Below, in pieces: positions 2,461 to 47,542 of a stretch of DNA of 64,000 nucleotides; position 1 is the stretch's first letter; the number at the start of each line of letters is the position of its first letter. The notes below the pieces were generated by a model. That model was given only the letters and a program-made list of their open reading frames with translations. It ran no database searches and had not been told where the DNA came from. The stretch comes from Bacteroidales bacterium (GTDB lineage: Bacteria; Bacteroidota; Bacteroidia; Bacteroidales; UBA12481): contig JBBAAF010000001.1 of assembly GCA_041658425.1 (NCBI GenBank), forward strand, positions 26,793 through 90,792. The letters are read 5' to 3'. Both the position numbers and the translations under genes were made by a program.

Positions 2461-2489
2461 AAAAAAGGCGGTTGGGAGCCGCCTTTTTT
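2461..2489 (+). terminator. Rho-independent terminator, possibly bidirectional
   Basis: The sequence is aaaaaaGGCGGttgggagCCGCCtttttt. It has a 5-bp GC stem with an A-run before it and a T-run after it, 44 nt after the stop of the upstream CDS. Confidence 0.7.
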
Positions 2490-3347: not shown

Positions 3348-3396
3348 ATCTGGTTTAGGATTTATATATTTGTCATCAAACAAAATTTCTACCAAA

Positions 3397-4068: not shown

Positions 4069-4070
4069 AC

Positions 4071-20252: not shown

Positions 20253-21716
20253 TTAGTTCCTAGTGATACGCTGCAATAATTCCCCATTTACGTCCCGGAT
20301 TTCCAGGATCATGGGCATCTCCCCGGGCAGACTGTGCGTTGCGCACGAAAAGCAGGGATCATACGCTCTGAACGCCATCTCCACCATATTTAATATCCCG
20401 TCGGTTACCGTTATCCCTTTTTTAATCAACCCCTGGGCCGCTTTTTTAATCGACATGGTAATCGCAGCATGATTATTGGTCGTTCCGACAATTATATTGG
20501 CTTTGGTCACAATACCCTTTGCATCCGTCCAGTAATGGTGCGTGAGTGTGCCTCTCTGTGCTTCCACGATCCCAACGCCTTCTCCAACAATTTTATCCAG
20601 CGGGGTCCGAAGTTCTTTCCCTGTGATATCAGCATCCAGAGCCAGTTCAAGACAATGCTCAGCCGCATAAAGCAATTCGATAAGTCTGGCCCAATGCATG
20701 GCAAGGGTTGCATGCACGGGTTTTCCGCCCAGAATCGTGTACATGCGTTCGTACTCTTGTTGAGCAAGCGGTGTGGCCATCCCATCTGATGCGTTTAATC
20801 TTGATAATGGCGTAGCATGGTAAACACCCGAATCTTGTCCTTCGACAAATCCTTTCCATCCGATCTTTTTCAGATACGGGAATTTCAGGTAACTCCATGG
20901 TTCAACCCGTTCCGCCACAAAATCACGATATTCAGCCGGTGAATACTTGCAGAGTTCCTTTCCCTCTGTGTCCACTACCCTTACCTTGCCATCATAAAAA
21001 TTGACTTTGTTATTCGCATCAACGAGCCCCATTGAATGAAGACAAAGGGAATAGGGCCCGTTCAGAATAATATCAACATACTGTTTATTGCTGAGGACGA
21101 CATCCTCGAAAATCTTGAGTGAAAATTGTGCAAATTTTATGAAACCGTTAGATTTCCCGATAATATCATCTCGTTCCAGTTCCGATAGTCCTCTTCTCAC
21201 ACCCCCTGGGATGTTCATCACCACGAAGGTCTGGTGTCCTCCTAATAAAGCCTGGATTTCCTGGGCGAGCCGGCGTTGTTTGATCACTTCCGTTCCGATT
21301 TCAACACCTACCTTATTAATGACACCCAAAATATTTCTTTCTGCCTTCGGAGCCTGAGGTCCGACCACAAAATCCGGTGCTGCGAGTGCATAAAAGTGAG
21401 CAATATGGCTATGAACAAAGTGAGCCATATAAAACAATTCCCTGAGTTTTTTCGCGGTCGGGGGAGGTTGCACACCAAAGACAGCATCGACCGCCTTTCC
21501 GGATGCCATATGATGGCAGCCCGGACACACACCACAAATCTTAGCCACTATGGCCGGTAATTCTTCCACGGGTCTGCCTTCGCAGAATTTTTCAAATCCC
21601 CGAAGTTCCGGGACCTGGAAATACACATTTTTTACATCTCCTTCATCGTCAAGAAAGATTTCAATTTTCCCGTGGCCCTCAAGCCTGGTAATTGGATCGA
21701 TGGTAATTCTTTTCAT
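20253..21716 (-). CDS. mvhA: [NiFe] hydrogenase large subunit, group 3c (MvhA-like), module B
   Basis: N-terminal RLEGHG and KICGVCPGCH. C-terminal DPCFSCATH followed by a ~26 aa cleavable extension. AGGAGG lies upstream of the ATG, and the ATG overlaps the upstream stop as TAATG. Confidence 0.9.
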   Translation of the reverse strand: MKRITIDPITRLEGHGKIEIFLDDEGDVKNVYFQVPELRGFEKFCEGRPVEELPAIVAKICGVCPGCHHMASGKAVDAVFGVQPPPTAKKLRELFYMAHFVHSHIAHFYALAAPDFVVGPQAPKAERNILGVINKVGVEIGTEVIKQRRLAQEIQALLGGHQTFVVMNIPGGVRRGLSELERDDIIGKSNGFIKFAQFSLKIFEDVVLSNKQYVDIILNGPYSLCLHSMGLVDANNKVNFYDGKVRVVDTEGKELCKYSPAEYRDFVAERVEPWSYLKFPYLKKIGWKGFVEGQDSGVYHATPLSRLNASDGMATPLAQQEYERMYTILGGKPVHATLAMHWARLIELLYAAEHCLELALDADITGKELRTPLDKIVGEGVGIVEAQRGTLTHHYWTDAKGIVTKANIIVGTTNNHAAITMSIKKAAQGLIKKGITVTDGILNMVEMAFRAYDPCFSCATHSLPGEMPMILEIRDVNGELLQRITRN

Positions 21717-22690
21717 TATAATCTCCTCCTTATCATTGCGGTAGGAAGACTGAAACGATAAAACGTTCCGGCGGGATCAACAATATCTTCGATTATTGCT
21801 TCAATTTCTGCCGGTTCTTTTGCGTCAATAATGCTCGCTATGGCCGACATGATCTTTGCCCCGGGATCTGCCACATCTGCAGTGGGACCATAACATCCGC
21901 GGCAGGGAGCATTCCCTTTGATGCAACGGTAGCCGCATCCTGACCGGGTGGCAGGTCCCATACAAATTACTTCCTGTTCCATGAAACAGGTAACCCCATC
22001 ATCGTATATTTCCCACGGACGTTTAAATTTCTTAATCAGTTTGTTCTCGGTTTTCGTCCGGATACACTCTTCGCACTGTGCTTTTACCCCTGCTCCGACC
22101 ACGGAGCCTTTGGGTGGCAGTTGTGCACCTGTAACAATAGCCATAAATACTTCGACCAATCGTTCCGTTTGAGGAGGGCATCCCGGAAGATAATAATCTA
22201 CATCCACTACCTTATCAAGAGGACGGACATCGTTATAAAACACAGGGATTTTAAGCGTCCCTTCCGGGACTTCATATTCAGCCTGAGGTTTAATTTTTTC
22301 AGGGTTCACGGTTGATTCACTTTCTTCATATACTCTCCGGAAAATTTCTTCCTTAGTATAAAAATTTGCCATGCCAGGGATTCCGCCGAGGTGGGAACAG
22401 CTACCATAGGCGACGAGGATTTTTGATTTTTTCCTGAGCAGTTTTGCAATATGTTCATTTTCGCTGTTCCTTACAGCTCCGTTGAAAAGAGTGAGATCAA
22501 TATACCCATCATGCATTTCCTCTACATCCTGATACTTGGTATCCAACGCAATAGGCCAGAAAACAAGATCAGCCGCCGCAACTACATCAAAGAGCTTTTC
22601 ATGCACATCCAGTACCGATACACAACACCCTCCACAAGCGGCTCCCCAATAGACGGCCAGTTTGAGTTTAGGTTTCTGTTCGTTCATCAT
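21716..22690 (-). CDS. mvhG: [NiFe] hydrogenase small subunit (MvhG-like), module B
   Basis: WGAACGGCCVSVLD, GSCSHLGGIPG, YLPGCPP, and C-terminal Cys clusters CMGPATRSGCG...APCRGC. Confidence 0.9.
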   Translation of the reverse strand: MMNEQKPKLKLAVYWGAACGGCCVSVLDVHEKLFDVVAAADLVFWPIALDTKYQDVEEMHDGYIDLTLFNGAVRNSENEHIAKLLRKKSKILVAYGSCSHLGGIPGMANFYTKEEIFRRVYEESESTVNPEKIKPQAEYEVPEGTLKIPVFYNDVRPLDKVVDVDYYLPGCPPQTERLVEVFMAIVTGAQLPPKGSVVGAGVKAQCEECIRTKTENKLIKKFKRPWEIYDDGVTCFMEQEVICMGPATRSGCGYRCIKGNAPCRGCYGPTADVADPGAKIMSAIASIIDAKEPAEIEAIIEDIVDPAGTFYRFSLPTAMIRRRL

Positions 22691-22704: not shown

Positions 22705-23130
22705 TTAGGTTAGTTCTTCCATCACTTGTTTTAACCTGCAAGGTCCCAGTTCGGTAATCGTTTCCGTGAAACTATTTACCAGCTCAGCAAATTGCTTTCC
22801 TTCACTGGCACTGATCCATTCCAGTTTGAGCCGCTCCTGTTCGATCCCCATCTGCTGAATATACTTTTGAAGAAGATGATACCTTCGTAAGCAGCGGTAA
22901 TTACCTTCCTGATAATGACAATCGCCAGGATGGCATCCGCAGACCAGCACGCCATCGGCGCCACGGATAAAAGCCCTGAGAACGAATGTTGGTTCAATGC
23001 GGCCTGAGCACATCACCCGGATAGCACGCACGTTGGGCTGGTATTTCATTCGCTGTGTACCGGCAAGATCTGCTCCCGTATATGAACACCAGTTACACAG
23101 AAAGGCTATAATTTGTGGTCTGAATTCCAT
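22705..23130 (-). CDS. mvhD: Methyl-viologen-reducing hydrogenase delta subunit (MvhD/FlpD-like [2Fe-2S] protein), module B
   Basis: [25 protein letters not shown] and [11 protein letters not shown] motifs. Confidence 0.9.
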   Translation of the reverse strand: MEFRPQIIAFLCNWCSYTGADLAGTQRMKYQPNVRAIRVMCSGRIEPTFVLRAFIRGADGVLVCGCHPGDCHYQEGNYRCLRRYHLLQKYIQQMGIEQERLKLEWISASEGKQFAELVNSFTETITELGPCRLKQVMEELT

Positions 23131-23852: not shown

Positions 23853-23856
23853 TGTT

Positions 23857-24333
23857 TTAAGCCAAATTATCAAAAACCTGTTCTGTGATTAAGTACTCCT
23901 TTATTTCCTTGAGCATTTCTGGATAGCGGCTCTTTAAGGGTGGTGTCAGTTCATTCGAAAACACCTGGTCTTCGATTATCTCAACTGCGATAATCCGGAT
24001 TTCCTCCGGTAATTTGATATTTAGTTTTTTACCCAGCCTTAGAGCTGTCAGAAAACTAATATCATGGAGATTTGATAAATGCATGGTTTCACGGAAATCA
24101 TCGGGACTGAACAGGTAAACTGAACCCGGGATACCATTTTTTGTCCGGATAGCATCGATCAGGATGGCCTCATCGTATCCGTTGAGGAGTTCAACAATCT
24201 CCAATCCACCCACGCAGGCGCACGCGAAATGAACATTCTGGTTCAGGCAATATTTACTGAGGTCATTGACTAATCTCGGACCTATACCGTCATCAGTCAA
24301 TATTTCATTTCCGATTCCAAGGACCAGCTTCAT
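23857..24333 (-). CDS. Hydrogenase maturation endopeptidase (HyaD/HybD/FrhD family)
   Basis: MKLVLGIGNEILTDDGIGPRL, the DAI motif, and a length of 158 aa. Confidence 0.9.
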   Translation of the reverse strand: MKLVLGIGNEILTDDGIGPRLVNDLSKYCLNQNVHFACACVGGLEIVELLNGYDEAILIDAIRTKNGIPGSVYLFSPDDFRETMHLSNLHDISFLTALRLGKKLNIKLPEEIRIIAVEIIEDQVFSNELTPPLKSRYPEMLKEIKEYLITEQVFDNLA

Positions 24334-24359: not shown

Positions 24360-25823
24360 TTAATCCCGCTGAATCGAACGAATTATTTTTCCATCAGAAT
24401 CTTTAAAATTAACCAAGAGAGGCATTTGTCCCGGCAAACTGTGTGTTGCACATGAAAAACAGGGATCATAAGCGCGGAAAGCCATCTCGATCTGGTTAAG
24501 AATGCCCTGATCGGGTTCAATACCGGCTTTAATGACATGTTGTGCAGCCTTTTTAAGTGACATGCAAATAGCAGCGTTATTGTTTGTAGTACCTACAATA
24601 ATATTAACTTTAGTTACCACACCTCTCGAATCGGTCCAATAATGGTGGGTTAGCGTACCCCGTTGAGCTTCCACACATCCGACTCCCTCACCGACAATTT
24701 CTTTCAGGTCGGCTCGAAGCTCTTTACCCGTGATTTCCGGATCCTTGATCAGCTCGTTAAATCGTTCAGCAGCATACAATAGCTCAACCAAGCGAGCCCA
24801 ATGCATTGCCAGGGTTGCATTGACAGGTTTCCCGCCGAAGGTACTGAACAATTCCTGGTATGCCTCATTGGCCAATGGGGTGGCCATTCCGTCGGCGGCA
24901 TTAAGCCTCGACAAAGGCGTTGCATGGTAAACGCCTGAATCTTGTCCTTCCACAAACCCCTTCCAGCCGATTTTCCTCAGGTAGGGAAACTTCAGGTATG
25001 ACCAGGGCTCAACACGTTCGGCGATATATTCAAGATAATCGGTAGGATGATATTTAAATTTCTCTTTCCCTTCAGTATCGACCACTCTCACCATTCCATC
25101 GTAGAAATTGACCTTATTGTTTGAATCAACCAGGCCCATGGAGTGAATCTTCAGATTATAAGGACCTTCGAGGATCATGTTAACATAATCATTATTTGCC
25201 AGAACCACATCCCTGAAGAGCTGAAGGCTGAATTTGGCAAATTTCTGAAATCCTTTCCCGGTCGGTATCAATTGATCCCTTTGCTCCTCGGTCAGTCCTT
25301 TCCTGACACCACCCGGGATATTAAGTACCACATGGGTCTGATGCCCCCCAAGCATTGCCTGAATCTCCTGTGCGAGCCTGCGTTGGTGTATAACCTCAGT
25401 CCCGACTTCTATGCCGACTTTAGCAATCACACCGAGGATATTCCTCTCGGAGGGATCGGCATTGGGACCAACCAGAAAATCCGGGGCAGCAAGAGCATAA
25501 AAATGGGCGATATGACTGTGAATAAAATGTGCCATATAGAATAATTCCCTGATTTTCTTCGCCGTAGGGGGTGGTTCCAGGCCAAATACGGCATCTATCG
25601 CTTTGCCGGCCGCCATGTGATGGCATCCCGGACAAACTCCACAAATCTTGGTCACGATCCGCGACATTTCCTCCACAGGCCGTCCTTCGCAGAATTTTTC
25701 GAACCCTCTGAGTTCCGGGACCTGAAAATACACGTTCTCAACATCTCCCTGATCTGTAAGGAAGATTTCAATTTTTCCATGGCCTTCAAGACGGGTTATC
25801 GGATCAATGGTAATCTTTTTCAT
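24360..25823 (-). CDS. mvhA: [NiFe] hydrogenase large subunit, group 3c (MvhA-like), module A
   Basis: It has the same motifs as 20253-21716. By eye it is about 80% identical to that paralog (87 of the first 100 residues). Confidence 0.9.
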   Translation of the reverse strand: MKKITIDPITRLEGHGKIEIFLTDQGDVENVYFQVPELRGFEKFCEGRPVEEMSRIVTKICGVCPGCHHMAAGKAIDAVFGLEPPPTAKKIRELFYMAHFIHSHIAHFYALAAPDFLVGPNADPSERNILGVIAKVGIEVGTEVIHQRRLAQEIQAMLGGHQTHVVLNIPGGVRKGLTEEQRDQLIPTGKGFQKFAKFSLQLFRDVVLANNDYVNMILEGPYNLKIHSMGLVDSNNKVNFYDGMVRVVDTEGKEKFKYHPTDYLEYIAERVEPWSYLKFPYLRKIGWKGFVEGQDSGVYHATPLSRLNAADGMATPLANEAYQELFSTFGGKPVNATLAMHWARLVELLYAAERFNELIKDPEITGKELRADLKEIVGEGVGCVEAQRGTLTHHYWTDSRGVVTKVNIIVGTTNNNAAICMSLKKAAQHVIKAGIEPDQGILNQIEMAFRAYDPCFSCATHSLPGQMPLLVNFKDSDGKIIRSIQRD

Positions 25824-25834: not shown

Positions 25835-26842
25835 TTAATTAACGGGCTTGGGGACAGACATTTTTTTTCGAAGAATGGCTTTGGGCAGGCTAAACCTGTA
25901 AAAGGTACCAACAGGATCGACGATCGCATCCACAATTTCCTCTATCTCTATTTCCAGGTTGCTGTCTATTATGGTCCCGATTGCTGACATCATTTTAGCC
26001 CCCGGATCAGGCGCATCGGCAGGTGGACCGTAGCAGCCCTGGCAAGGGGCATTCCCTTCGATGCAACGATAGCCGCATCCTCCTCTGGTGGCAGGGCCCA
26101 TACAGATCACACCTTGTTCAAGAAAACAGGTTTCGCCGTCATCATGAATTTCCCATGGACGGTAAAACTTCCTGATGACCTTGTTATCCGTTTTCTTTCT
26201 CTTGCACTCATCGCATAAAGTTTTTTCCCATGCTCCGACAACCGAACCATTTGGGGGTAATTCGGCCATGTTGACTATTGCCATGAAAACCTCAACGAAT
26301 CGTTCTGTTTGAGGAGGACATCCAGGAAGATAGTAATCCACATCCACGACCTGGTTCAGGGCTCTCACATCATTGAAGAATTCCGGCAATTCCAGTTCAC
26401 CCTCAGTTACATTGAAATGAGTCTTTGGAATGATCCCGTCAGGATTTAAGGTGGACTCGGTCTCCAGATAGATACGGTTAAAAAGTTCATTCTTGTTTGT
26501 CAGATTGGCCAGACCGGGAATTCCACCCATATGTGCACAGGATCCATATGCCACTAAAATCTTGGATTTTTGCCTTAGGAGCCTGGCCATATGTTCGTTT
26601 TCGCTGTTTCGTACCGCGCCGTTAAAAAGGGTCAGATCGATAAAACCATCTGGCATAGCTTCCACATCCTTATACTTGATATCGAGAGCTATAGGCCAGA
26701 AAACCAAATCAGCAGCGGCCACCACCTCGAATAGTTTCTCATGCACGTCAAGCACAGAAACACAGCATCCACCGCAAGCAGCCCCCCAATAGATAGCCAT
26801 TTTTAGTTTCGATTTACCTTCATTTGCCATGTTCGGTTCCAT
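25835..26842 (-). CDS. mvhG: [NiFe] hydrogenase small subunit (MvhG-like), module A
   Basis: WGAACGGCCVSVLD, GSCAHMGGIPG and YLPGCPP. The start overlaps the mvhD stop as TAATG. Confidence 0.9.
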   Translation of the reverse strand: MEPNMANEGKSKLKMAIYWGAACGGCCVSVLDVHEKLFEVVAAADLVFWPIALDIKYKDVEAMPDGFIDLTLFNGAVRNSENEHMARLLRQKSKILVAYGSCAHMGGIPGLANLTNKNELFNRIYLETESTLNPDGIIPKTHFNVTEGELELPEFFNDVRALNQVVDVDYYLPGCPPQTERFVEVFMAIVNMAELPPNGSVVGAWEKTLCDECKRKKTDNKVIRKFYRPWEIHDDGETCFLEQGVICMGPATRGGCGYRCIEGNAPCQGCYGPPADAPDPGAKMMSAIGTIIDSNLEIEIEEIVDAIVDPVGTFYRFSLPKAILRKKMSVPKPVN

Positions 26843-27267
26843 TAAACAAAAGTTTCCAGCTGTAGTTTTATTGTTGACGGACCCAGATTTCTAACCGTTT
26901 CCGTCATATGATTAACCAGCTCGGCAAATTGCTTGCCCTCGCTGGCGCTGATCCAGGCAAGCCTTACTCGGTCAGGTTCAATCCCCATTTGCATGATATA
27001 CTTTTCAATCAGTTTAAATCGCCTGAGGCACTTATAATTACCCTCATGGTAATGACAGTCTCCCGGGTGGCAACCACAAACCAGTACCCCATCTGCTCCC
27101 TCGAGAAAAGCTTTGAAAATAAAGGTAGGACAAACTCTTCCCGAGCACATAATCCTGATAATCCGTAGGTTGTGCGAATATTTCATGCGGCTGGTCCCTG
27201 CAAGATCTGCACCGGTATAGGAACACCAGTTGCATAGAAAAGCGACGATTTTTGGCTCGAATTCCAT
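26842..27267 (-). CDS. mvhD: MvhD/FlpD-like [2Fe-2S] subunit, module A
   Basis: [18 protein letters not shown] and [12 protein letters not shown] chose the start at 27267 (MEFEP...) by homology with the module B copy. The alternative ATG at 27279 would overlap hdrA. Confidence 0.88.
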
Positions 27268-27271
27268 AGTT

Positions 27272-28999
27272 TCAGACATCTAATAGTTGTAACATGACTC
27301 CTTCGATCTGTGCGAGAATCTGTTTCTCGGTGAAGTGACGGCTCCCAATGGCACCGGTAGGGCAGGCAGAGGCGCAGGTCCCGCAACCTTTGCAAATGAC
27401 TTCGTTGACGCTGCAGACTTTTTTCTCCTTGAGGTATTCAATGGCTCCGTAGGGACATACATGAACACAGGTTTGGCATCCGCAGCAAATCTCTTCGCGT
27501 ACGCTTGAGGTGATAACTTCCACCTCGATTGAGCCCTTATAGATCATGGCAAGAACTCTCGCTGCAGCCGCCTTGGCCTGGGATGCCGAATCGCTGATCT
27601 CTTTCGGTGCCTGGCAACTTCCTACGATAAATACACCGTCCGTTGTAGTGGCTACAGGATCCAGCTTAGGGTGTTTCTCGATGTAAAAATTATTGCTACA
27701 CCGGCTGATCCCGAGAACCTGGCTTAACTGCTTGGATGTTTCCTGGGCCTCCATTCCAACCATCAGGATCACCAGATCAGCAGGAACCTCAACTTGCTCT
27801 CCGCTAAGCAATTCCTTCATTTCGATGACGAGTCTGGTCTTTTCGTTTTTGCCGGCCTCATGGATATAGGGAAGTTTACCCTTTTGGTCGTACATCAGGA
27901 ACATCACGCCTCTTTTGGCAGTTTTTGAATACATCTCTTCACAACCCTTGCTCATCGACCGCATATCAGCATAAATCTGATAAACATGAGCTTTAGGCAG
28001 CAAATCCTTTATCTGGTTTGCAAATTTCAAAGCTGTCTGGCAACATGTTCTTGAACAATATGGCAGAAAATCAGGATTTCTGCTGCCAACGCAATGAATT
28101 ATAGCAACATGTTTGGGCTCTTGCCGTGAGTCCAGCCTGATATAACCGTGTCTGAGCATTTCCTCAAATTCCACGCTTGTTATAATATTAGGCAGCCTCT
28201 GATAGGCATAGTTTGAAAGCGGGACGGGCTTAAATGGTTTTAAGCCTGTGGCCACAATGATATTGCCAAATTCGAGCTCGGATTGAGTCTCTCTGTGATT
28301 GACCGTTCCGATGAAATTGCCTACATATCCGGACAGTTTTACCAACTGGGAATTCAGGTAAACCTGGATATGCGGATGAGAAGAGACTTCTTCAATGATC
28401 GGATTCAAATACTTTGAGGCCTCATCAAGGTTGGGAAAAGTCCGGTTTATCTTTTTCATCATTCCTCCCAGGCTTTTTTCTTTCTCAACCAAAAAAACGA
28501 TACGACCGGTTCGTGCAATCTCCCGTGCTGCTGTCAATCCGGCTATTCCTCCTCCGATAACCAGAGTAGCCGGATTCACTTTAACGCTACGTTTGTTTAA
28601 AGCTTCCTGCCAACGGACACGCTTGACCGCTCCTGTAACCAGGTCTATCGCTTTCAGGGTAGCTTTTTCGCGATCATCATGAACCCACGATACCTGTTCC
28701 CTGATATTAGCCATCTGAAACAGGTAAGGATTTAGTCCGGCTTTCTCAAGAGCCTTCCTGAAGGTCATTTCATGGATCCGGGGAGAACAGGCGGCTACTA
28801 CGATACGGTTGAGATTCATCTCCTGTATATCTTTGACCATAAGGTCCTGGCCCGGATCGGAACACATATATTTATAATCCCGTGCAACCACAACGCCTTG
28901 CAATTTGCCGGCCTCAGCAGCTACTCTTTCGACGTCTACATTCTTGGCTATATTTGTACCACACCAGCAGATGTATACCCCGATTCTGATTTCTTCCAT
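27272..28999 (-). CDS. hdrA: HdrA-like flavoprotein, type 1, module A
   Basis: [38 protein letters not shown]-terminal [12 protein letters not shown] and [12 protein letters not shown]. It is about 60% identical to 15489-17234 by eye (64 of the first 100 residues). Confidence 0.85.
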
Positions 29000-29010
29000 A
29001 GCGTTAGAAC

Positions 29011-30201
29011 CTAAATAGCAGGCGTTAATTCAACAATAGACTGACGATTCTGACCTGCCCGTCTGAGACGGTCAAAATAGACAGCGAAGGGCCGGTAAGC
29101 CAGATGCGACCATTTTGAGAAGGGAACCTCGATCACGATCATCGGAACCAGAAAGGCGAGATGGATAAGATAGGTAAAATACGTTGCGGCCGGCAAACCT
29201 GACAACCGGAAAATATGAATCAGAATGCCTGTGACCGCAGTAAAAAACAGAAGAACGATAAACATCCAGTCGGACGGATGCGAAAATTGCATCTTAAGAT
29301 CGGTTTTCCTGATCCTGCCGATAAAGGTGTATATCAGGAAGAACAATATTCCAAAAGTGGAATAGTAACCCAATAAACGCTGCCAGTGGTACCAGGGTTT
29401 GATCTCCTCGATCTGGAACTCCTTCAGGAAAGCCACAATCAGGGTGAACATGATGGTATAGCCTGTCATAACCAGCAGGTGGCCAATCCAATAGGTCCTG
29501 TTATCGCATTTTGAGAACCTGGCCTGGGTTACAAAATTGTATATCAGGCTCCAGAATTCCGTGAAATAAGAATAAAAGGGAACTTTCAGGTTCCTATCTG
29601 AAAGGATCACCCGGTAAAACATGTGAAAGATATTGCTGATCAGTAATCCGGCCACAAGGATTGCCATCAGGAGATCCCCGTATTCGATGAGCTGGACGAA
29701 CCGGGATCCGGAAATCCCGTCGGCAAGGCTGTTTATCATGACCCCGCCCTGTTCATTAACAAAAGCCTCCGGTTTAGAAAAGAGGAGCGTTGACGGGGGG
29801 AGAAAGACCAGAAACGAAATAATAACACCAAGCGCTATTAAAATTATGGCTGCCAGCTCCCAGATCTTTCGTGTATAAAACAACCTGGATATGCCCGTCC
29901 AGTCATAACAGGAAGTCAGATACCGGCGTAAAACCATCATTAATTCGCCCGGATTGGCATTACGCGGGCAGGTTTCGGTGCATTCGCCGCAATAGTAGCA
30001 GAGCCACGGATCGACACTGGAAACCAATGGCTTTTTAAGTCCCATCTGAGCCAATCTGATTCCTCTCCGAGGAAAAAGATTATCATCCTTTGTGAGAGGA
30101 CAGATCGCCGTACAGTTACCGCAATGGAAGCATTCATTCCATTCACGGAGTCCATATTTGTGTAGTTCCTGCTTGAATTCCGGATCGACTCTGGATATCA
30201 T
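29011..30201 (-). CDS. HdrC-like::NarI-like membrane fusion (QmoC-like), module A
   Basis: CFHCGNCTAICP and CYYCGECTETCP, about 6 TM helices, and PFSKWSHLAYRP at the C-terminus. Confidence 0.8.
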   Translation of the reverse strand: MISRVDPEFKQELHKYGLREWNECFHCGNCTAICPLTKDDNLFPRRGIRLAQMGLKKPLVSSVDPWLCYYCGECTETCPRNANPGELMMVLRRYLTSCYDWTGISRLFYTRKIWELAAIILIALGVIISFLVFLPPSTLLFSKPEAFVNEQGGVMINSLADGISGSRFVQLIEYGDLLMAILVAGLLISNIFHMFYRVILSDRNLKVPFYSYFTEFWSLIYNFVTQARFSKCDNRTYWIGHLLVMTGYTIMFTLIVAFLKEFQIEEIKPWYHWQRLLGYYSTFGILFFLIYTFIGRIRKTDLKMQFSHPSDWMFIVLLFFTAVTGILIHIFRLSGLPAATYFTYLIHLAFLVPMIVIEVPFSKWSHLAYRPFAVYFDRLRRAGQNRQSIVELTPAI

Positions 30202-30207
30202 GTCTTT

Positions 30208-31971
30208 TTAATTTATCATATAGGTTAACGGAAATACCTCTGAATCTGTAAGCCTGTCGCTCATAATGCTTTGCAGCACACCGGCAGCAGCCGCCGAAGC
30301 CTGAACCACCGAATCCGGAATATCTTTTGGACCCTGGCAAACACCTGCGATCCAGATACCCGGCCGGTTGGTCATTACAGGATCAATCTCATACCGGACT
30401 GCTTTAAACCAGCCGTATTCATCCACGTCAATTCCCAGAATACCTGATAGTTTCTTCTGGTCATCTGCTGGTTCCAGGCCTACGGATAAGATAATCATAT
30501 CCATATCCTGTTCGAGCATCCTGCCGGCAAGAATATCTTCCGTTCTCAGGTGGAGATGTCCGTCAATTTGCTCCACACGTGCAGTTTTACCCCGAATCAT
30601 GCGGACGCCTTCATCCTGAATCCGGCAATAAAACTCCTCATACCCCTTGCCAAAGGCCCTCATATCTATGAAGTATTCAAATATCTCGGCCGATGGAAGC
30701 TTTTCCCTTACCAGGTGTGCCAGCTTCAGCGAGTACATGCAGCAAACCTTTGAACAGTATGGATTGAAATTCTCGTCGCGGCTTCCCACACAATGGATTA
30801 TTCCAATCTTCTGAGGCTTACCGCTGTCATTTACAAATACAGGATTCCCCTTTTTATCAGTCGTCCTGAAAGTGATCTCACCGCCGGTTGGGCCAGCAGC
30901 ATTGATCAATCGTTCGAACTCAAGAGAAGTCAAGACGTTCGGGTATTTTCCGTATCCAAAGCGGTCAATCCGTGAAGCCTTGAAGGCCTTGAAGCCATTG
31001 GCAACAATAATGTTTCCTGCTTCTATCTCAATCTCACGTGGTACTTCATACAGATTGATACAGCCGGCAACCGGGCAAACTTTGACGCAAACTCCGCATT
31101 TCCCCTCCTGTATAAACCTGCAGGCTTCACCATCAATCATATACTTATTGGGAACTGCCTGTGGGAATGGCATATAGATAGCTTTCCTCAGGGTTATTCC
31201 CTCATCAAATTCACTGGGAACCTGAACCGGACATTTTTCGGAACAGGTCCCGCAACCGATACAGGAATTAACTTCAACCCATCGCGGCGACTGCCTGACT
31301 GCAACCTTATAATGTCCCGGTTTCCCATTGACAGCAACAACCTCTGAACGGGTCATGAGTTCAATAAAAGGATGCTGACCCACTTCAACCATTTTGGGAG
31401 TAAGAATGCAGGCGGCACAATCAAGGGTCGGAAAAGTTTTGTCGAACTTGGCCATATGACCGCCTATCGTCCCGGATTTCTCTATCAGGTAAACTTTCAG
31501 ACCAGCATTGGCAATCTCCAGGGAAGCCTGAATTCCTGAGATTCCTGCGCCGATGACAATGGTATCCTGGTGAACATGGGAAGACTGATTTCTTTTACCC
31601 ATAACCTGGGAATGAGCCCGCTCAAGCAACTCATATACATCCTGGATCCGGCTTTCATAAACGCACCATATATCGCCAAAATCTGCAATAACAACTGATT
31701 CAGCATGATAACCGAGATGTGTCATTGCCGTACGAACTATGTGTGTGAACCTTTCCGGCCTGATTCCGGCAAGAATCACTGAAGTTAACCGGTGATGCTT
31801 GATTGTTTCCGTTAAAACATGGAAATCAGAGAAAAGGTATCTTGACTGATCGATGATAACCGGTATCTTAAGGTTATCTCTGACAAAAGCGATCAGATCT
31901 GACAAATCTACCGGCGTGTACCCGGATGGGGGCTCGCAGAAGATTATTCCGATTCGATCATACTTGCTCAT
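30208..31971 (-). CDS. hdrA: HdrA-like flavoprotein, type 2, module A
   Basis: GAGISGIQASLE, FDKTFPTLDCAACILTPKM, CIGCGTCSEKCP...CGVCVKVCP, HCVGSRDENFNPYCSKVCC. The N-terminal ~130 aa are barely similar to the module B paralog. Confidence 0.85.
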   Translation of the reverse strand: MSKYDRIGIIFCEPPSGYTPVDLSDLIAFVRDNLKIPVIIDQSRYLFSDFHVLTETIKHHRLTSVILAGIRPERFTHIVRTAMTHLGYHAESVVIADFGDIWCVYESRIQDVYELLERAHSQVMGKRNQSSHVHQDTIVIGAGISGIQASLEIANAGLKVYLIEKSGTIGGHMAKFDKTFPTLDCAACILTPKMVEVGQHPFIELMTRSEVVAVNGKPGHYKVAVRQSPRWVEVNSCIGCGTCSEKCPVQVPSEFDEGITLRKAIYMPFPQAVPNKYMIDGEACRFIQEGKCGVCVKVCPVAGCINLYEVPREIEIEAGNIIVANGFKAFKASRIDRFGYGKYPNVLTSLEFERLINAAGPTGGEITFRTTDKKGNPVFVNDSGKPQKIGIIHCVGSRDENFNPYCSKVCCMYSLKLAHLVREKLPSAEIFEYFIDMRAFGKGYEEFYCRIQDEGVRMIRGKTARVEQIDGHLHLRTEDILAGRMLEQDMDMIILSVGLEPADDQKKLSGILGIDVDEYGWFKAVRYEIDPVMTNRPGIWIAGVCQGPKDIPDSVVQASAAAAGVLQSIMSDRLTDSEVFPLTYMIN

Positions 31972-32021: not shown

Positions 32022-32039
32022 TTGTGAAAAACTGATCAA
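32022..32039. promoter_or_regulatory. Candidate Rex operator upstream of module A hdrA
   Basis: TTGTGAA-aaac-TGATCAA compared with the Rex consensus TTGTGAA-N4-TTCACAA. The left half is perfect and the right half matches 4 of 7. It lies about 50 nt upstream of the ATG at 31971 (minus strand). Confidence 0.4.
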
Positions 32040-32212: not shown

Positions 32213-32230
32213 TTGTGAAATTCATAACAA
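32213..32230. promoter_or_regulatory. Candidate Rex operator immediately upstream of rex (autoregulation)
   Basis: TTGTGAA-attc-ATAACAA. The left half is perfect and the right half matches 5 of 7. It ends 4 nt before the rex ATG. Confidence 0.45.
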
Positions 32231-32870: not shown

Positions 32871-32882
32871 ATCCGATTGAAA

Positions 32883-35189
32883 ATGAACAGGGACCGATCA
32901 TCGTTTCAGATTCATGTTCACGGGATGGTACAGGGCGTAGGGTTCCGGCCATTTGTCTACCGATTGGCACGGGAATTAAACCTGGATGGTTCCGTTGAGA
33001 ACCGAAATGACGGTGTCTGGATCAATTTATTCTGTACGCGGGAAGGACTGGATATTTTCATCAGTTTACTGAAACGACAGGCACCACCTCCATCAACGAT
33101 CCTGTCCGTTGAAGTTATTCACCAGGCAATGAATAATGCTCAGTCAGGCTTTCGGATACTGGCAAGTCAAAATGGCTCCGATGAAATTACCGGTATTTGT
33201 CCGGATATCGCTGTGTGCGAGAAATGTCTGGAAGACATGAAAAACCATCCGCGCCGGATAAGCTATCCTTTCGTGAACTGCACACATTGCGGGCCCCGGT
33301 TCAGTATTATCCGGGAGCTACCATGGGACCGGCCCAACACATCAATGTCAGGGTTCAGCATGTGTGACGGCTGCAGAGCTGAGTACACCGATATGCTCGA
33401 CCGTCGCTTTCATGCTCAACCGATCGCTTGTACGATATGTGGGCCGGTTTACTATCAGAAAGGCTTTCAACCGGGCGCTGAATTATGGGCGGATATGGTT
33501 GGACAGATCATTCAGGCTTTACTCACCGGCCGGATCGGAGCTATTCAGGGTATCGGAGGATACCACCTGGTTTGCGATGCCACAAATGCTTTGGCTGTGG
33601 CCGAACTTCGCAAAAGAAAGCACCGTGACGGTAAGCCTTTTGCGGTAATGTTCATGGGTATTGAGGAAATTCGACAATATTGTGAATGCTCGGAAGCAGA
33701 GGAAAAACTAATAACCTCATGGCAACGTCCCATTGTTATCCTGAAAGAGCATAAATGCTTAAATTCCCTGGTCAACAAGGGTTTAGGGAGCCTCGGGGTT
33801 ATGCTCCCGTATACTCCACTGCAACACCAGCTCATGACCGAAGGGAAATTCCAGGCATTAATCTGTACCAGTGGAAATCTTTCCGATGAACCCATCGTCA
33901 TTACACCGGAGGCAGCTGAAGATAAGTTAAAAGATATTGCTGACTTTTTTATACATAGCAACAGACCCATCATTAACCGGACAGATGATTCTGTTGCACG
34001 ATTAGCCGGAGAAAATACGATTCTTATCCGGAGATCCCGTAGCTATGTTCCCACGGCAATACAGATTAGTCTGTCTGTGGATGGTATTCTTGCTCTCGGC
34101 GCAGAACAGAAAAACACATTTTGCCTGGGGAAGAATCGTGAGGCCATTCTAAGTCAGCATATCGGGGATCTGAAAAACTTTGACACCTTTCAATTTATGG
34201 AGGAGTCCCTGGCCAGATTTAAGAAGATATACCGTTTCAATCCGACTCTGATAGTCACCGACCAACACCCCGATTATCTTTCAACGCAATTTGGCAATTC
34301 CCTCGGTATCCCGGTCATAGCAGTGCAGCACCATCACGCGCACATCGCCTCATGCATGGCGGAGCATCAATTGGATGAACCGGTGATCGGAGTTGCTTTT
34401 GACGGCACCGGACTTGGAACCGACCAAACCATCTGGGGCGGGGAGTTTCTGATCGCCACACTCGATCAATTCACCCGGTTTACCTGGCTGGACCCCGTGA
34501 AGGTCCCCGGCGGTGATCAGGCAGTAAGAGAACCCTGGAGAGTCGCGATAGCTTACCTTTATAAATGTTACGGGGAAAATATTCCATTTGAATCTTTCAC
34601 TGGACTTCAAGGTATACCTGAGATTCAGCGAAATCAAATCATCAGCCTATTAAAGTCAGACGTTCCTGTTCCAGTCTCCTCTGCTGCAGGCCGGCTCTTT
34701 GATGCAATCTCAACCCTGACCGGTTGCTGCATTGAGAACACCTTCGATGCCGAGGCACCCATAAGACTGGAGATGGTTGCTAATCAGCTGGAAACAGGTG
34801 AATATCCTTTTCAGCATGATCACACTATTTCCTTTACTTCTACTATAGAAGCCATCCGGGTCGATCTTGAAAATCATGTTCCCGTATCCGTGATTTCTGC
34901 CAGATTTCACAGAACCCTGGCAAGAGCCATCCTGGAAACCTGTCTCCAGGCAAGGGAACTGACCAGGCTTAAGAGTGTGGTTCTGTCGGGAGGAACTTTT
35001 CAAAATGCATTTCTCACCCGGATTACATGTTCAGCCTTATTAAAGAACAAATTTAACGTATATACCCACCGCGTAGTTCCACCCAATGATGGCGGAATCT
35101 CCCTGGGTCAATTGGTTGTTGCAGCAAAAAAACAGATTAAAAAAAATGTGTCTAAGCATCCCGGCCGAAGTTCTATCCACCAACAGTAA
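32883..35189 (+). CDS. hypF: Carbamoyltransferase HypF
   Basis: Acylphosphatase domain (HVHGMVQGVGFRPF), two Zn-finger CxxC pairs (CEKC...CTHCGPRF; CDGC...CTICGP), and YrdC and Kae1-like domains. The ATG is at 32883 (the track start is a TTG). Confidence 0.95.
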   Translation: MNRDRSSFQIHVHGMVQGVGFRPFVYRLARELNLDGSVENRNDGVWINLFCTREGLDIFISLLKRQAPPPSTILSVEVIHQAMNNAQSGFRILASQNGSDEITGICPDIAVCEKCLEDMKNHPRRISYPFVNCTHCGPRFSIIRELPWDRPNTSMSGFSMCDGCRAEYTDMLDRRFHAQPIACTICGPVYYQKGFQPGAELWADMVGQIIQALLTGRIGAIQGIGGYHLVCDATNALAVAELRKRKHRDGKPFAVMFMGIEEIRQYCECSEAEEKLITSWQRPIVILKEHKCLNSLVNKGLGSLGVMLPYTPLQHQLMTEGKFQALICTSGNLSDEPIVITPEAAEDKLKDIADFFIHSNRPIINRTDDSVARLAGENTILIRRSRSYVPTAIQISLSVDGILALGAEQKNTFCLGKNREAILSQHIGDLKNFDTFQFMEESLARFKKIYRFNPTLIVTDQHPDYLSTQFGNSLGIPVIAVQHHHAHIASCMAEHQLDEPVIGVAFDGTGLGTDQTIWGGEFLIATLDQFTRFTWLDPVKVPGGDQAVREPWRVAIAYLYKCYGENIPFESFTGLQGIPEIQRNQIISLLKSDVPVPVSSAAGRLFDAISTLTGCCIENTFDAEAPIRLEMVANQLETGEYPFQHDHTISFTSTIEAIRVDLENHVPVSVISARFHRTLARAILETCLQARELTRLKSVVLSGGTFQNAFLTRITCSALLKNKFNVYTHRVVPPNDGGISLGQLVVAAKKQIKKNVSKHPGRSSIHQQ

Positions 35190-35373
35190 TATGGCCATTG
35201 TGCAAATAGGTGGGCTAATGATCCAGGCGTCTCTCGATCTGGTTGAGGATATCCGCGTAGGCGATTATGTCCTGATCCATACCGGATTTATTATTCAGAA
35301 GATTTCAATGGAGGAGGCAGAGGAAACTAAAAGACTCATCCGTGAGATTGAAAACCTTAATGATGCTCCATGA
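35146..35373 (+). CDS. hypC: Hydrogenase assembly chaperone HypC/HupF
   Basis: The N-terminus MCLSIPAEV has the invariant Cys2. About 75 aa. It overlaps the hypF 3' end. Confidence 0.9.
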   Translation: MCLSIPAEVLSTNSNMAIVQIGGLMIQASLDLVEDIRVGDYVLIHTGFIIQKISMEEAEETKRLIREIENLNDAP

Positions 35374-36422
35374 ATATTGTTGAGGCTTTATTGTTTGCCA
35401 TCCGAAGGGAAGCTACCCAACCGGTCCGGTTGATGGAAGTTTGCGGAGGACATACTCATGCTATCAGGAAATTCGGAATACCAGGACTCCTTCCCGGTAC
35501 GGTCAGCTTACTGTCCGGGCCCGGTTGCCCGGTTTGTGTAACCCATACCGGATTCATCGATCAAGCCATTCATTTGGCCCGAAACTATCCGGTGATCATA
35601 ACCACTTTCGGCGATCTCATCAGGGTACCCGGATCGGATCAAAGCCTGGAAACCGCCCGAGCAAACGGAGCAGATATCCGACTTGTCCTTTCTCCGCTGC
35701 AAGCTTTAACCCTTGCTCAAACCGAGAAGAGTAAACAAGTGGTTTTTTTGGGCATCGGATTTGAAACAACCGCTCCCTCGGTGGCCGTCACAATAAAAAC
35801 CGCCCTTGAACGGGGAATCGGTAATTTTTCTGTTTTGAGTGCCCACAAGATAATGCCGCCGGCTATGGCCGCTTTGGTCAATCATCAGCCCAACCTCGAC
35901 GGTTTCATTTGCCCGGGACATGTAAGTACCATAACAGGCTCGGCTATATATGAATTTCTTGCACAAGACCATGGAATACCTTGTGTTATTTCCGGTTTTG
36001 AAGCTTCAGATATTCTGGAATCAATATTACTGTTGATCAGACAGATAAATAGTCATCAGCCTAAAGTTGAGATTCAGTACAGGCGGGCTGTGAAAATGGA
36101 AGGCAATTTGAAAGCCCTGGAAATCATGCATGAAGTATTCGTCCTTCGTGACGATTGGTGGCGTGGGTTGGGAATCATCCCGAAAAGTGGCCTCATTCCT
36201 GATGGCAAGTATGCCGGTTTCGATACCCTGCAGCGATTTAACCTGCCTGAATTTCCGGATACCGGCAATCGTGGATGCAGATGCGGCGATATCCTCCGTG
36301 GATTAATTACTCCTCCTGAGTGTACATTGTATGGGAAAACCTGTACCCCTGACTCACCGGCCGGTGCCTGCATGGTGTCGTCTGAGGGGACCTGCCAGGC
36401 TTTCTACCGCTATCAGAATTGA
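35370..36422 (+). CDS. hypD: Hydrogenase formation protein HypD
   Basis: MEVCGGHTH, GPGCPVCV, GFETTAP and PGHVS motifs. It overlaps hypC as ATGA. Confidence 0.95.
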   Translation: MNIVEALLFAIRREATQPVRLMEVCGGHTHAIRKFGIPGLLPGTVSLLSGPGCPVCVTHTGFIDQAIHLARNYPVIITTFGDLIRVPGSDQSLETARANGADIRLVLSPLQALTLAQTEKSKQVVFLGIGFETTAPSVAVTIKTALERGIGNFSVLSAHKIMPPAMAALVNHQPNLDGFICPGHVSTITGSAIYEFLAQDHGIPCVISGFEASDILESILLLIRQINSHQPKVEIQYRRAVKMEGNLKALEIMHEVFVLRDDWWRGLGIIPKSGLIPDGKYAGFDTLQRFNLPEFPDTGNRGCRCGDILRGLITPPECTLYGKTCTPDSPAGACMVSSEGTCQAFYRYQN

Positions 36423-36438
36423 AAATGAAAAGCTAACC

Positions 36439-37452
36439 ATGAAAGACAAAATACTATTAACGCATGGTAGTGGGGGTCGGATGACCCGTGAATTGATACG
36501 CGATCTCTTTCAGCCCTACCTGAACAATGAATATCTTGAAAAAGAATCCGACGCAGCAATACTTCAACCGGTAACAGGTAAGATTGCGGTATCCTGCGAT
36601 GCATTCGTAGTTCATCCTATCATCTTTGCCGGAGGAGATATCGGCAAACTCTCAATATGCGGTACTGCCAATGATCTGGCGGTTGCCGGTGCCAAACCCC
36701 ATTCAATAACAGCTTCCTTTATTCTGGAAGAAGGACTTGAAAAGTCCCTTTTGGAAAGAGTGGTATCGTCCATGGCCCGTGAAATAAAACAACTCGATAT
36801 TGCACTGATTGCCGCTGATACCAAAGTGGTTCCAAGTGGTCTATGCGACAAAATATATATTACCACTACCGGAATTGGTACCGTTATTCCTGATCTAGAG
36901 CAGGTCTCCAACGGGAAAGGGATTCAGGCTGGTGATCGGATTATCCTTAGTGGCACAATCGGCGATCATGGGGCAGCAATCTTTTGTGCCCGGTATCCGG
37001 AGCATATTCTGACGACAATCGAGAGTGATTGTGCTTGCGTATATCCATTGATTGAAATGATTTCAAGCTTCGGCACTGGCATTCGGTTCATGCGTGATCC
37101 CACACGGGGAGGATTAGCAACGGTTTTATGCGAAGTCACAGAAAAGAAAGCCTGGGGCATCACTATTAAGGAAAGCCTTATCCCGGTAAGGAATGAAGTT
37201 GCAGGATTATGCGACCTGGTTGGTCTGGATCCCCTTTACCTGGCAAATGAGGGTAAGTTCATAATGGTTGCCGCTGAATCGATTTCAAATGAAATACTAA
37301 CCGCTTTACGATCTCATCCGCTTGGAAAAAACGCTTGTGAAATTGGTGTGGTCACCCGGGAAAATCCGGGTCGGGTTATTTTGGAAACCCCGATCGGGGG
37401 CACGAGATTATTGACCATGCTTTCAGGGGATCCCTTGCCACGAATTTGTTGA
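36439..37452 (+). CDS. hypE: Hydrogenase expression/formation protein HypE
   Basis: THGSGG N-terminus, AIR-synthase-like fold, and C-terminal PRIC motif. The ATG at 36439 avoids overlap with hypD. Confidence 0.95.
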   Translation: MKDKILLTHGSGGRMTRELIRDLFQPYLNNEYLEKESDAAILQPVTGKIAVSCDAFVVHPIIFAGGDIGKLSICGTANDLAVAGAKPHSITASFILEEGLEKSLLERVVSSMAREIKQLDIALIAADTKVVPSGLCDKIYITTTGIGTVIPDLEQVSNGKGIQAGDRIILSGTIGDHGAAIFCARYPEHILTTIESDCACVYPLIEMISSFGTGIRFMRDPTRGGLATVLCEVTEKKAWGITIKESLIPVRNEVAGLCDLVGLDPLYLANEGKFIMVAAESISNEILTALRSHPLGKNACEIGVVTRENPGRVILETPIGGTRLLTMLSGDPLPRIC

Positions 37453-37460
37453 ACCTTACC

Positions 37461-37802
37461 ATGCATGAATTGGCTGTCATAGAAGGAATTATAGAAACGA
37501 TGACTGAGGTCGCCGCAGCCAATCGTCTATCCAGGATCTCACGGCTGGATCTGGTTATTGGCAAAATGCACCAGTTGGTACCCGATATGCTTGAGTTTTC
37601 GTTTGAGACTTGCACGCAGGGTACCGTGGCTGAAAAGTGTAAACTTGTGATCGACTGGAGGCCAGTTATCGTGACTTGCCGTGATTGCAGTAACCGGTCT
37701 GAGATCATCGACAGTATATTTATCTGTCCGCATTGCGGAAGCTTCCGTCTCAATACTGAATCTGGTAAAGAGCTATATATTAAATCAATAACAGGAGAAT
37801 AA
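37461..37802 (+). CDS. hypA: Hydrogenase nickel insertion protein HypA
   Basis: MHELAV N-terminus (the MHE Ni site). Zn site CRDC...CPHCGS. Confidence 0.93.
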   Translation: MHELAVIEGIIETMTEVAAANRLSRISRLDLVIGKMHQLVPDMLEFSFETCTQGTVAEKCKLVIDWRPVIVTCRDCSNRSEIIDSIFICPHCGSFRLNTESGKELYIKSITGE

Positions 37803-37803
37803 A

Positions 37804-38466
37804 ATGGATATAGTATTAATGAAGAATGTTCTGGACAGAAACCAGAATAAGGCAGACGAAAACCGCCTGAGATTATCAGAAAGAGGTATTCTTATGATCA
37901 ATATTATCAGTTCACCAGGAGCCGGAAAAACCAGCCTTCTTGAAAAAACCCTAGCTCACTTTTCGGGGATATTGAAAATTGCTGTCATTGAGGGTGACAT
38001 TGCTACCGACCGTGATGCCCGGAGACTACAACCTTATAATTCCCAAATCATTCAAATAAACACCGAAGGAGGATGCCACCTCGATTCCCACTCGATTGCC
38101 AAAGCATTTGAGCATTTGGATCTGGACAAACTTCAATTGATCATTGTGGAAAATGTTGGCAACCTGGTATGTCCCGCAGAATTTGATTTGGGTGAAAACC
38201 ATAAGATAGCCGTGATCAGCGTTCCGGAAGGTGATGACAAGCCGGTTAAGTATCCGCTGCTGTTCAGGGAATCCTCAGCTATTATTCTGAATAAGACAGA
38301 TCTGATCCCCTATACAAATTTCAGCCTTGAACAATTCAGAAATTACGTTAGGGAACTGAATGGCAGTATTCCTGTTATGGAAATTTCATGCACCACCGGC
38401 TCAGGATTGTCGGTTTGGTTTGACTGGATCCGGGCTCAAATAAAAGAGAAAGGCGTACCTGCATAG
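37804..38466 (+). CDS. hypB: Hydrogenase nickel incorporation GTPase HypB
   Basis: P-loop SSPGAGKTSLLE, ENVGNLVCPA and NKTDL motifs. Confidence 0.95.
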   Translation: MDIVLMKNVLDRNQNKADENRLRLSERGILMINIISSPGAGKTSLLEKTLAHFSGILKIAVIEGDIATDRDARRLQPYNSQIIQINTEGGCHLDSHSIAKAFEHLDLDKLQLIIVENVGNLVCPAEFDLGENHKIAVISVPEGDDKPVKYPLLFRESSAIILNKTDLIPYTNFSLEQFRNYVRELNGSIPVMEISCTTGSGLSVWFDWIRAQIKEKGVPA

Positions 38467-42966: not shown

Positions 42967-42967
42967 A

Positions 42968-47539: not shown

Positions 47540-47542
47540 TCT

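Follow-up and report, generated by a model that had tools for sequence, protein, structure and literature searches.

Two HdrA paralogs with complementary cofactor modules flank a QmoC-like membrane protein in hydrogenase gene clusters of a Bacteroidales genome

We examined a 64,000-nucleotide stretch of a Bacteroidales genome (assembly GCA_041658425.1, contig JBBAAF010000001.1, positions 26,793 to 90,792; hereafter the window, with coordinates counted from its first letter), in which genes for two distinct types of HdrA occur on either side of a third gene in the interval 27,272–31,971. A first reading of the letters (the original prediction) had proposed that the two types divide the cofactor modules of a canonical HdrA between them and act as an obligate heterodimer with an asymmetric electron path, conceptually like QmoA/QmoB. 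Each type is present twice, in two gene clusters that we term A and B, and the open reading frames (ORFs) lie at the predicted positions, with 575 and 581 aa for type 1 and 587 and 600 aa for type 2. Cluster B, which covers the interval, reads as follows.

30208..31971, minus strand: HdrA type 2, 587 aa, the 'core' or QmoA-like subunit (best PDB match archaeal HdrA)
29011..30201, minus strand: QmoC-like membrane subunit, 396 aa (NCBIfam qmoC, NF038018)
27272..28999, minus strand: HdrA type 1, 575 aa, the 'arm' or QmoB-like subunit (best PDB match archaeal HdrA)
26842..27279, minus strand: MvhD-type subunit, 145 aa, directly downstream of type 1 (Pfam FlpD, E 2.7e-55)
25835..26842, minus strand: [NiFe] hydrogenase small subunit, MvhG-like, 335 aa (Pfam Oxidored_q6, from the identical gene on a public contig; synteny conserved)
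24360..25823, minus strand: [NiFe] hydrogenase large subunit, MvhA-like, 487 aa (PDB 5odc_F; Pfam NiFeSe_Hases/HoxH)
23857..24333, minus strand: HycI-type hydrogenase maturation protease, 158 aa (Pfam HycI; operon end in most loci)

Several Pfam assignments were taken from a public contig identical to that of the window (ENA ERZ27247322 k141_353228). The top PDB match of the large subunit is MvhA (5odc_F, E 2.6e-122), and the MvhD product also matches NCBIfam VhuD and the C-terminal region of HdrA2. With MvhA- and MvhG-like subunits, MvhD, a maturation protease and the hypABCDEF genes listed further below, the cluster has the make-up of an Mvh-type (group 3c) [NiFe] hydrogenase, the subgroup being assigned by gene content rather than by formal typing. 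No gene for HdrB, a stand-alone HdrC or a CCG-domain protein was found in the 64-kb window.

To place the cofactor ligands, we aligned all four window HdrA proteins with MAFFT to residues 1–650 of 5ODC_A, rebuilt from phmmer outputs; archaeal HdrA was the top phmmer match among PDB chains for both type 1 (E 1e-145) and type 2 (E 1e-126). The source organism of 5ODC is Methanothermococcus thermolithotrophicus according to the PDB and M. wolfeii according to Chadwick et al. (PMC9012536). Type 1 carries cysteines at HdrA positions 11, 13, 46 and 71, in the N-terminal cluster domain, as well as a C-terminal 2x[4Fe-4S] ferredoxin domain with all eight cysteines; it has E/K or S/D in place of Cys194/Cys197, and the inserted ferredoxin domain (about 237–315) is cleanly deleted. 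Type 2 is the reciprocal, with equivalents of Cys194 and Cys197 (FPTLDCAACIL; C185/C188 in the 587-aa protein), an inserted 2x[4Fe-4S] ferredoxin domain with all eight cysteines, an N-terminal domain of normal length from which the cluster ligand set has been lost, and a chain that stops before the C-terminal ferredoxin domain. Both types retain the thioredoxin-reductase-like flavin adenine dinucleotide (FAD) domain with its FAD motifs, K409 and the HA4 ligands (386/399/403/404) within the CxGSRx(n)CSxxCC motif. The original prediction had suggested this alignment as a check on its reading by eye, and in it neither paralog keeps all cluster ligands, nor does either chain hold all four HdrA modules. 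One detail did not stand: the N-terminal ~130 aa of type 2 had been called Cys-free and highly divergent, and while the domain is indeed the most divergent part of the protein (mean column identity 0.47), it is degenerate rather than Cys-free, containing 1–3 cysteines, of which Cys12, in the column of HdrA Cys11, recurs in many homologues.

The folds agree with this assignment. AlphaFold2 models of the 575-aa type 1 and 587-aa type 2 proteins (pLDDT 82.3 and 77.8) matched 5odc_A in Foldseek with E 7e-66 and TMq 0.87 for type 1, and with E 1e-56 and TMq 0.75 for type 2; because the latter match spans 586 columns, the N-terminal domain of type 2 appears to be kept as a fold. By family models the proteins stand well apart from full-length HdrA, scoring 354–587 bits on NCBIfam HdrA/HdrA2 against cutoffs of 1100–1400, and the only HdrB/HdrC-type partner in the window and in syntenic loci is an HdrC-like domain fused to the QmoC-like protein.

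That protein, encoded between the two paralogs, matches the qmoC model NF038018 over its full length (positions 2–359 of 360), and its first 95 residues match the HdrC chains of solved Hdr complexes in a PDB profile search, in which no solved QmoC structure was present among the PDB chains. Its N-terminal HdrC-like domain has two CxxCxxCxxxC motifs with eight invariant cysteines and is followed by a membrane domain with six transmembrane helices predicted from hydropathy. Apart from the cluster motifs, five histidines (241, 308, 329, 347 and 366) are invariant, of which three sit at the ends of helices and the other two nearby; by analogy with QmoC and HdrE, they are candidate heme b ligands, enough for two bis-His hemes. 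The HdrC-like 2x[4Fe-4S] domain joined to a multi-helix membrane domain with conserved histidines is the architecture of QmoC, and close homologues are annotated as QmoC by JGI. The score of 195.6 bits (185.5 for the cluster A copy) nevertheless falls below the equivalog cutoff of 300 that marks orthology to QmoC from bacteria that reduce sulfate or oxidize sulfur; proteins of this kind score 185–227 bits, versus 351–512 for true QmoC. From its sequence, the protein thus appears to join a quinone-type membrane anchor to the HdrC module that in methanogen Hdr makes contact with HA4, and HdrB is absent.

We then asked how widely the partition holds. One genome per species (GTDB set) was scanned with an alignment of the QmoC-like proteins; a relative is encoded in at least 591 species-level genomes, of which the best 80 loci were kept, and ligand columns were read in 141 HdrA homologues. 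All 46 type 1 homologues show the four N-terminal cysteines (CCCC), no C194/C197, no inserted domain and a C-terminal domain, and all 44 type 2 homologues show the reverse pattern. The partition is likewise without exception in independent sets of 40 database homologues per type, and we therefore regard it as not due to chance. [quoted passage not shown]

The loci fall into two architectures. Class I, that of the window, consists of type 2 (~600 aa), the QmoC-like protein, type 1 (~578 aa), MvhD, MvhG, MvhA and HycI, and comprises about 50 loci in Bacteroidota and one Ignavibacteriales metagenome-assembled genome. Among the 34 class I loci whose flanks were long enough, 32 were scored as type 2–QmoC-like–type 1, and the remaining two (L029, L031) also contain type 1, with an overlapping QmoC-like ORF call. 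Class II consists of MvhD, a 432-aa HdrA, a 645–690-aa HdrA and the QmoC-like protein, and occurs in Bacteroidales, Krumholzibacteriota, Chloroflexota and Phycisphaerae.

Several loci in these sets carry enlarged HdrA proteins. In some Bacteroidales/Rikenellaceae, type 2 reaches ~1010 aa (L043:3976-7017; P0063, P0095, P0099) through N-terminal fusion partners, namely a response-regulator receiver and a glycine-cleavage-H-like (lipoyl-type) domain, with the type 2–QmoC–type 1 arrangement retained. Two class II loci encode A-type HdrA proteins of 917–939 aa (L050:2714-5467, L079:2182-5001), and that of L050 contains an inserted GltD/NfnB-like module (Fer4_20 + Pyr_redox_2) resembling the NfnB insertion reported for HdrA9-11 of anaerobic methanotrophic archaea of group 1 (ANME-1), which by analogy suggests an NAD(P)H-linked variant. 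A further class II Qmo-like cluster (433 + 653 + 93 + 379 aa; L085) lies among archaeal-looking genes (diphthamide synthase, DNA polymerase II small subunit); given this context, the HdrA-like Qmo form would span both domains of life.

Published structures give the partition a mechanistic meaning. In solved Hdr complexes, a mobile arm works in trans on the FAD', HA4' and HA5' of the partner chain (PMC12350162): it delivers electrons to the partner FAD', from which the high-potential electron passes to HA4' (PMC12350162; see also PMC13518236), and the low-potential electron travels from FAD' to the N-terminal cluster of the arm, HA3, and on to HA5' in the inserted ferredoxin domain of the partner (PMC12350162). 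Cys197 of the partner has been reported as the ligand that completes HA3 (PMC9012536). Type 1 holds exactly the modules of the arm and type 2 exactly those of the core (FAD', HA4', Cys197' and HA5'/HA6'), and a complete unit would therefore form only in a heterodimer. Because the modules are split between the types, a homodimer of either would lack the full path; that of type 1 would be without the low-potential exit and Cys197, and that of type 2 without the electron entry and the MvhD site. An obligate type 1/type 2 heterodimer with an asymmetric path, as originally predicted, is thus well supported by sequence taken together with published structures, through the trans-acting arm, the conserved pairing, the reciprocal conservation and the equivalent partition in Qmo described below.

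We propose that both clusters encode a membrane-anchored, Qmo-type bifurcating complex that is built around this HdrA heterodimer and fed by an Mvh-type [NiFe] hydrogenase, a reading to which we assign a probability of about 60%. Each complex would comprise MvhA, MvhG, MvhD, HdrA type 1, HdrA type 2 and the QmoC-like protein, with QmoC in place of HdrBC, and the heterodimer would retain a single bifurcation unit, against the symmetric two of a canonical HdrA homodimer. Type 1 would serve as the arm, its N-terminal [4Fe-4S] and C-terminal di-cluster domains docking MvhD and the hydrogenase, and type 2 as the core, with the bifurcating FAD, HA4, the Cys194/197 pair and the inserted di-cluster ferredoxin domain. 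Electrons from H2 would enter through MvhAG and MvhD and pass by way of the type 1 arm to the type 2 FAD; from there the high-potential electron would reach menaquinone via HA4 of type 2 and then the HdrC-like clusters and hemes b of QmoC, and the low-potential electron would move through the N-terminal shuttle cluster of type 1 and the inserted ferredoxin domain of type 2 to ferredoxin. [quoted passage not shown] This proposal is in keeping with the presence of hyp genes and a 2-oxoacid:ferredoxin oxidoreductase near the clusters.

Several points weigh against it. We infer the pairing of the two types, the identity of the bifurcating FAD, the substrates and the direction: the contacts between type 1 and type 2 are deduced from sequence and published structures, heme and quinone binding by the QmoC-like protein solely from conserved histidines and homology, and direction and substrates from thermodynamic reasoning. 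In addition, one cryo-electron microscopy (cryo-EM) study places residue 197 in a selenosulfide bond and not on the cluster (PMC13518236), and type 1 retains FAD motifs, K409 and HA4 ligands, which may indicate a redox role of its own outside the model.

The likeness to QmoA/QmoB, which the original prediction had called conceptual, goes further than that, since the canonical pair shows the same partition and the gene between the paralogs is QmoC-like. A library-wide search yielded a canonical Qmo contig with the order aprB-aprA-qmoA-qmoB-qmoC, whose QmoC scores 511.8 bits on the qmoC model, and features of canonical QmoA and QmoB were compared with those of types 2 and 1 using two loci (L083 and L084). 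In canonical QmoB, the N-terminal Cys domain and HA4 are present together with the C-terminal ferredoxin domain and a fused MvhD, and Cys194/197 and the inserted domain are absent; type 1 therefore corresponds to the QmoB architecture, with MvhD as the next gene. Canonical QmoA has a cysteine at the 197 position (FPKLCPPTCGL), an inserted ferredoxin domain with eight cysteines and HA4, and neither an N-terminal nor a C-terminal domain; type 2 corresponds to this architecture plus a vestigial N-terminal domain, which canonical QmoA is without. Type I QmoABC and the window complex therefore have in common two HdrA-derived flavoproteins, a QmoC, an identical module partition and an MvhD module tied to the B-type subunit. 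QmoABC has been reported to bind two FAD groups and two hemes b (PMC3333476), which provides a precedent for A-type and B-type HdrA paralogs assembled together on QmoC. The differences lie in MvhD, fused there and a separate gene here; in gene order, A-B-C there and A-C-B here; in linkage, to aprBA there and to a hydrogenase here; and in the QmoC-like protein of the window, which is below the 300-bit equivalog cutoff.

Sequence identity and phylogeny separate the families. Across the flavin-domain core, type 1 is 28.0% identical to QmoB and 39.5% to archaeal HdrA, and type 2 is 34.8% identical to QmoA and 47.7% to archaeal HdrA. In the phylogeny with QmoA and QmoB that the original prediction had also suggested, type I QmoA and QmoB group together and apart from all the rest in 100 of 100 neighbor-joining bootstraps, such that the architecture is shared and the family is not. 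The 'type II' Qmo complexes described in the literature, found with or without Dsr/Apr, have A and B subunits closer to HdrA than to canonical QmoAB (PMC10504309; PMC8477390), and types 1 and 2 have this property as well. Class II loci stand in our comparison for type II Qmo, whose reference proteins come from Vulcanisaeta moutnovskia and Ammonifex degensii. Type II/class II clusters (Chernyh 2020; Neukirchen 2023) share the arm/core partition with the window, and their QmoC-like proteins are 44–52% identical to the cluster B copy. They differ in an A subunit (~432 aa) that, unlike type 2, has no N-terminal domain at all, in a B subunit (~650 aa) that, unlike type 1, has a half-degenerate inserted ferredoxin domain and His for K409, and in a D-A-B-C order with no adjacent hydrogenase genes. 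A grouping of type 1 with class II QmoB-like proteins and of type 2 with QmoA-like proteins is not claimed here: for type 1 with class II B on the flavin-domain core, neighbor-joining support was 86% without type I sequences and fell to 25% when canonical QmoA/B were added.

Since the window pair and canonical Qmo belong to different families, the arm/core split would have evolved independently at least twice, and such recurrence is itself an argument that the trans-acting mechanism imposes the split. Our tree agrees here with earlier work in which Qmo complexes were concluded to have been assembled two or more times (PMC10504309; PMC8477390).

Among the alternatives, the one that survives best, although we consider it unlikely, keeps the same heterodimer and assigns it a different reaction, either as a linear H2:menaquinone oxidoreductase in which the ferredoxin-type domains act as wires, or as a reverse, H2-evolving confurcation from reduced ferredoxin and menaquinol during fermentation. 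A confurcating mechanism has been proposed for Qmo (PMC3333476), Bacteroidales are largely fermenters, the nearby 2-oxoacid:ferredoxin oxidoreductase would supply reduced ferredoxin, and a Rex-like regulator adjoins the cluster. The linear version is countered by the inserted ferredoxin domain of type 2, in which all eight cysteines are invariant and which is among the most conserved domains, an argument for a low-potential branch in use; confurcation is countered by energetics, as reduced ferredoxin and menaquinol average about -260 mV versus -414 mV for H2 (our calculation), and H2 evolution would need a very low H2 pressure.

It is far less probable that the two types do not pair, with a type 1 homodimer serving Mvh as a soluble module and a type 2 homodimer serving QmoC as a separate membrane module. 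Solved HdrA and the HdrA-like proteins of sulfur oxidizers are homodimers and both types keep FAD and HA4; however, a type 1 pair would have no Cys197 or low-potential exit and a type 2 pair no entry or MvhD docking domains, every locus with sufficient flank has the two genes together, and the same split occurs in QmoA/QmoB, which are members of a single QmoABC complex. Equally poor odds attach to a disulfide reductase in which the paralogs act as the A subunit, HdrBC-like or DsrC-like partners come from other parts of the genome, and QmoC is an accessory anchor. The best family matches are indeed HdrA/HdrA2, and the genome was examined within the 64-kb window of a 197.6-kb contig; against this, the window and the roughly 50 syntenic loci contain no CCG-domain gene, and QmoC, encoded between the two hdrA genes, already includes the HdrC-like domain expected to contact HA4. 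Least credible of all is an ordinary QmoABC of dissimilatory sulfur metabolism, passing electrons between menaquinol and adenosine 5'-phosphosulfate reductase, for which the QmoC architecture, the QmoA/QmoB-like partition and the JGI annotation could be cited, and we reject canonical Qmo membership on the NCBIfam cutoff (185–227 bits against 300), the lack of aprAB/sat in the window or in the related loci examined, the phylogeny together with identities of 28%/35% to canonical QmoB/QmoA versus 40%/48% to archaeal HdrA, and the presence of a hydrogenase in the operon itself.

Returning to the hydrogenase-fed bifurcating complex, parts of it have counterparts elsewhere. Methanogen MvhAGD-HdrABC (PDB 5ODC, 7BKB, 8RVU) matches it in the hydrogenase module and MvhD, in HdrA fold, in both the FAD and the HA4 site, and in having an HdrC-like di-cluster domain; that complex differs in its symmetric HdrA homodimer with four modules per chain, its solubility and its HdrB, which reduces CoM-S-S-CoB, whereas the window has no HdrB and a membrane cytochrome-type domain in its place. 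A symmetry-breaking heterodimer has been proposed for ANME HdrA5/6, 12/13 and 3/4 and for Moorella MetFV-HdrABC-MvhD (Chadwick 2022, PMC9012536). These tandem or fused HdrA proteins resemble the window pair in that, of two copies, one has lost Cys197 and the other the N-terminal cluster domain, and the window genes fit the same pattern of complementary, adjacent genes, with only qmoC between them; likened here by published description, the ANME/Moorella proteins are archaeal or acetogen, have mostly HdrBC-type or unknown partners and in no case QmoC. Closer in components is an Archaeoglobi cluster (Ca. Methanoglobus nevadensis, Ca. M. hypatiae) with MvhAGD, two HdrA and HdrC-QmoC, for which high expression in Ca. 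Methanoglobus has been reported and bifurcation of electrons from H2 to menaquinone and ferredoxin proposed; this cluster is archaeal, and the likeness is one of component list and proposed reaction, not of sequence.

The concept of an HdrA heterodimer (2022), HdrA-like Qmo (2020-2023) and a cluster of Mvh, two HdrA and QmoC (2022-2024) are thus already published. We found no description of the Bacteroidota version or of its wide distribution in the open literature, a scope beyond which the HdrA review by Appel et al. 2021 lies. Taken together, the observations raise the possibility, which we hold tentatively and at somewhat less than even odds, that many Bacteroidota and some Ignavibacteriota carry an uncharacterized, energy-conserving Mvh-HdrA(arm)/HdrA(core)-QmoC hydrogenase that bifurcates H2 to menaquinone and ferredoxin, that the split arose at least twice, and that its single asymmetric unit represents the minimal form of HdrA-type bifurcation. 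If the reaction is as proposed, common anaerobic Bacteroidales could consume H2, supply electrons to the menaquinone pool (for instance in support of fumarate respiration) and simultaneously make low-potential ferredoxin, and models of how H2 is turned over and energy conserved in sediments, digesters and guts would change. The type 1/type 2 pair, as a natural dissection of HdrA into an arm chain and a core chain, also offers a clean test system for the trans-acting shuttle model derived from methanogen cryo-EM.

The second cluster and the remaining neighbors of cluster B are arranged as follows.

22705..23130, minus strand: cluster A MvhD, 141 aa (Pfam FlpD, E 1e-56)
21716..22690, minus strand: cluster A MvhG-like small subunit, 324 aa
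20253..21716, minus strand: cluster A MvhA-like large subunit, 487 aa
18417..20219, minus strand: cluster A HdrA type 2, 600 aa
17255..18451, minus strand: cluster A QmoC-like subunit (NCBIfam qmoC, 185.5 bits)
15489..17234, minus strand: cluster A HdrA type 1, 581 aa
32235..32870, plus strand: Rex-like redox-sensing regulator, divergent from cluster B (Pfam Put_DNA-bind_N + CoA_binding)
32877..38466, plus strand: hypF, hypC, hypD, hypE, hypA, hypB, for [NiFe] hydrogenase maturation (Pfam, identical public contig)

Cluster A, with the order mvhD-G-A, type 2, QmoC-like, type 1 (22705 down to 15489), is a paralogous cluster older than B. Its QmoC-like protein, with 39% identity to that of cluster B, is missing a loop of ~17 residues after the first helix and keeps all cysteines and histidines. 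The ORF is listed from a TTG at 18451, and homologues align only from residue 16; the start is likely an ATG near 18406, the listed codon probably lying 15 codons too far upstream. When the window clusters were compared with other loci by A or B lineage, nearly all loci were B-type and the cluster A QmoC was aberrantly divergent, and the QmoC of an A-type cluster from a different genome (L059) is no nearer to the cluster A copy of the window (43%).

Control of the clusters by Rex was considered through operator sites. Allowing up to three mismatches to the consensus TTGTGAA-N4-TTCACAA, the window contains four matches versus 4.8 expected, which is not above chance; three of the four (23499-23516, 32022-32039 and 32213-32230) lie in the two hydrogenase-Hdr promoter regions, one of them immediately ahead of the Rex-like gene. 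The placement alone is suggestive, and the Rex-like protein is a possible regulator of cluster B.

Other genes surround these clusters. Between A and B, a 120-aa ORF at 23511-23873 (a 113-aa gene on the public contig) has no Pfam match. Downstream of the hyp genes, two adjacent giant ORFs (1012 and 1173 aa, 39958-46489) show a weak response-regulator match and a PPDK_N (phosphoenolpyruvate-utilizing, ATP-binding) domain, and are followed by the two-subunit 2-oxoacid:ferredoxin oxidoreductase at 46523-49387. At the opposite end of the window, a corrinoid-methyltransferase-like set (21-6031) encodes a B12-binding protein, a URO-D/MtaA-like protein and a homocysteine S-methyltransferase-like protein, adjoined by a 798-aa Fe-S/[2Fe-2S]/FAD protein.

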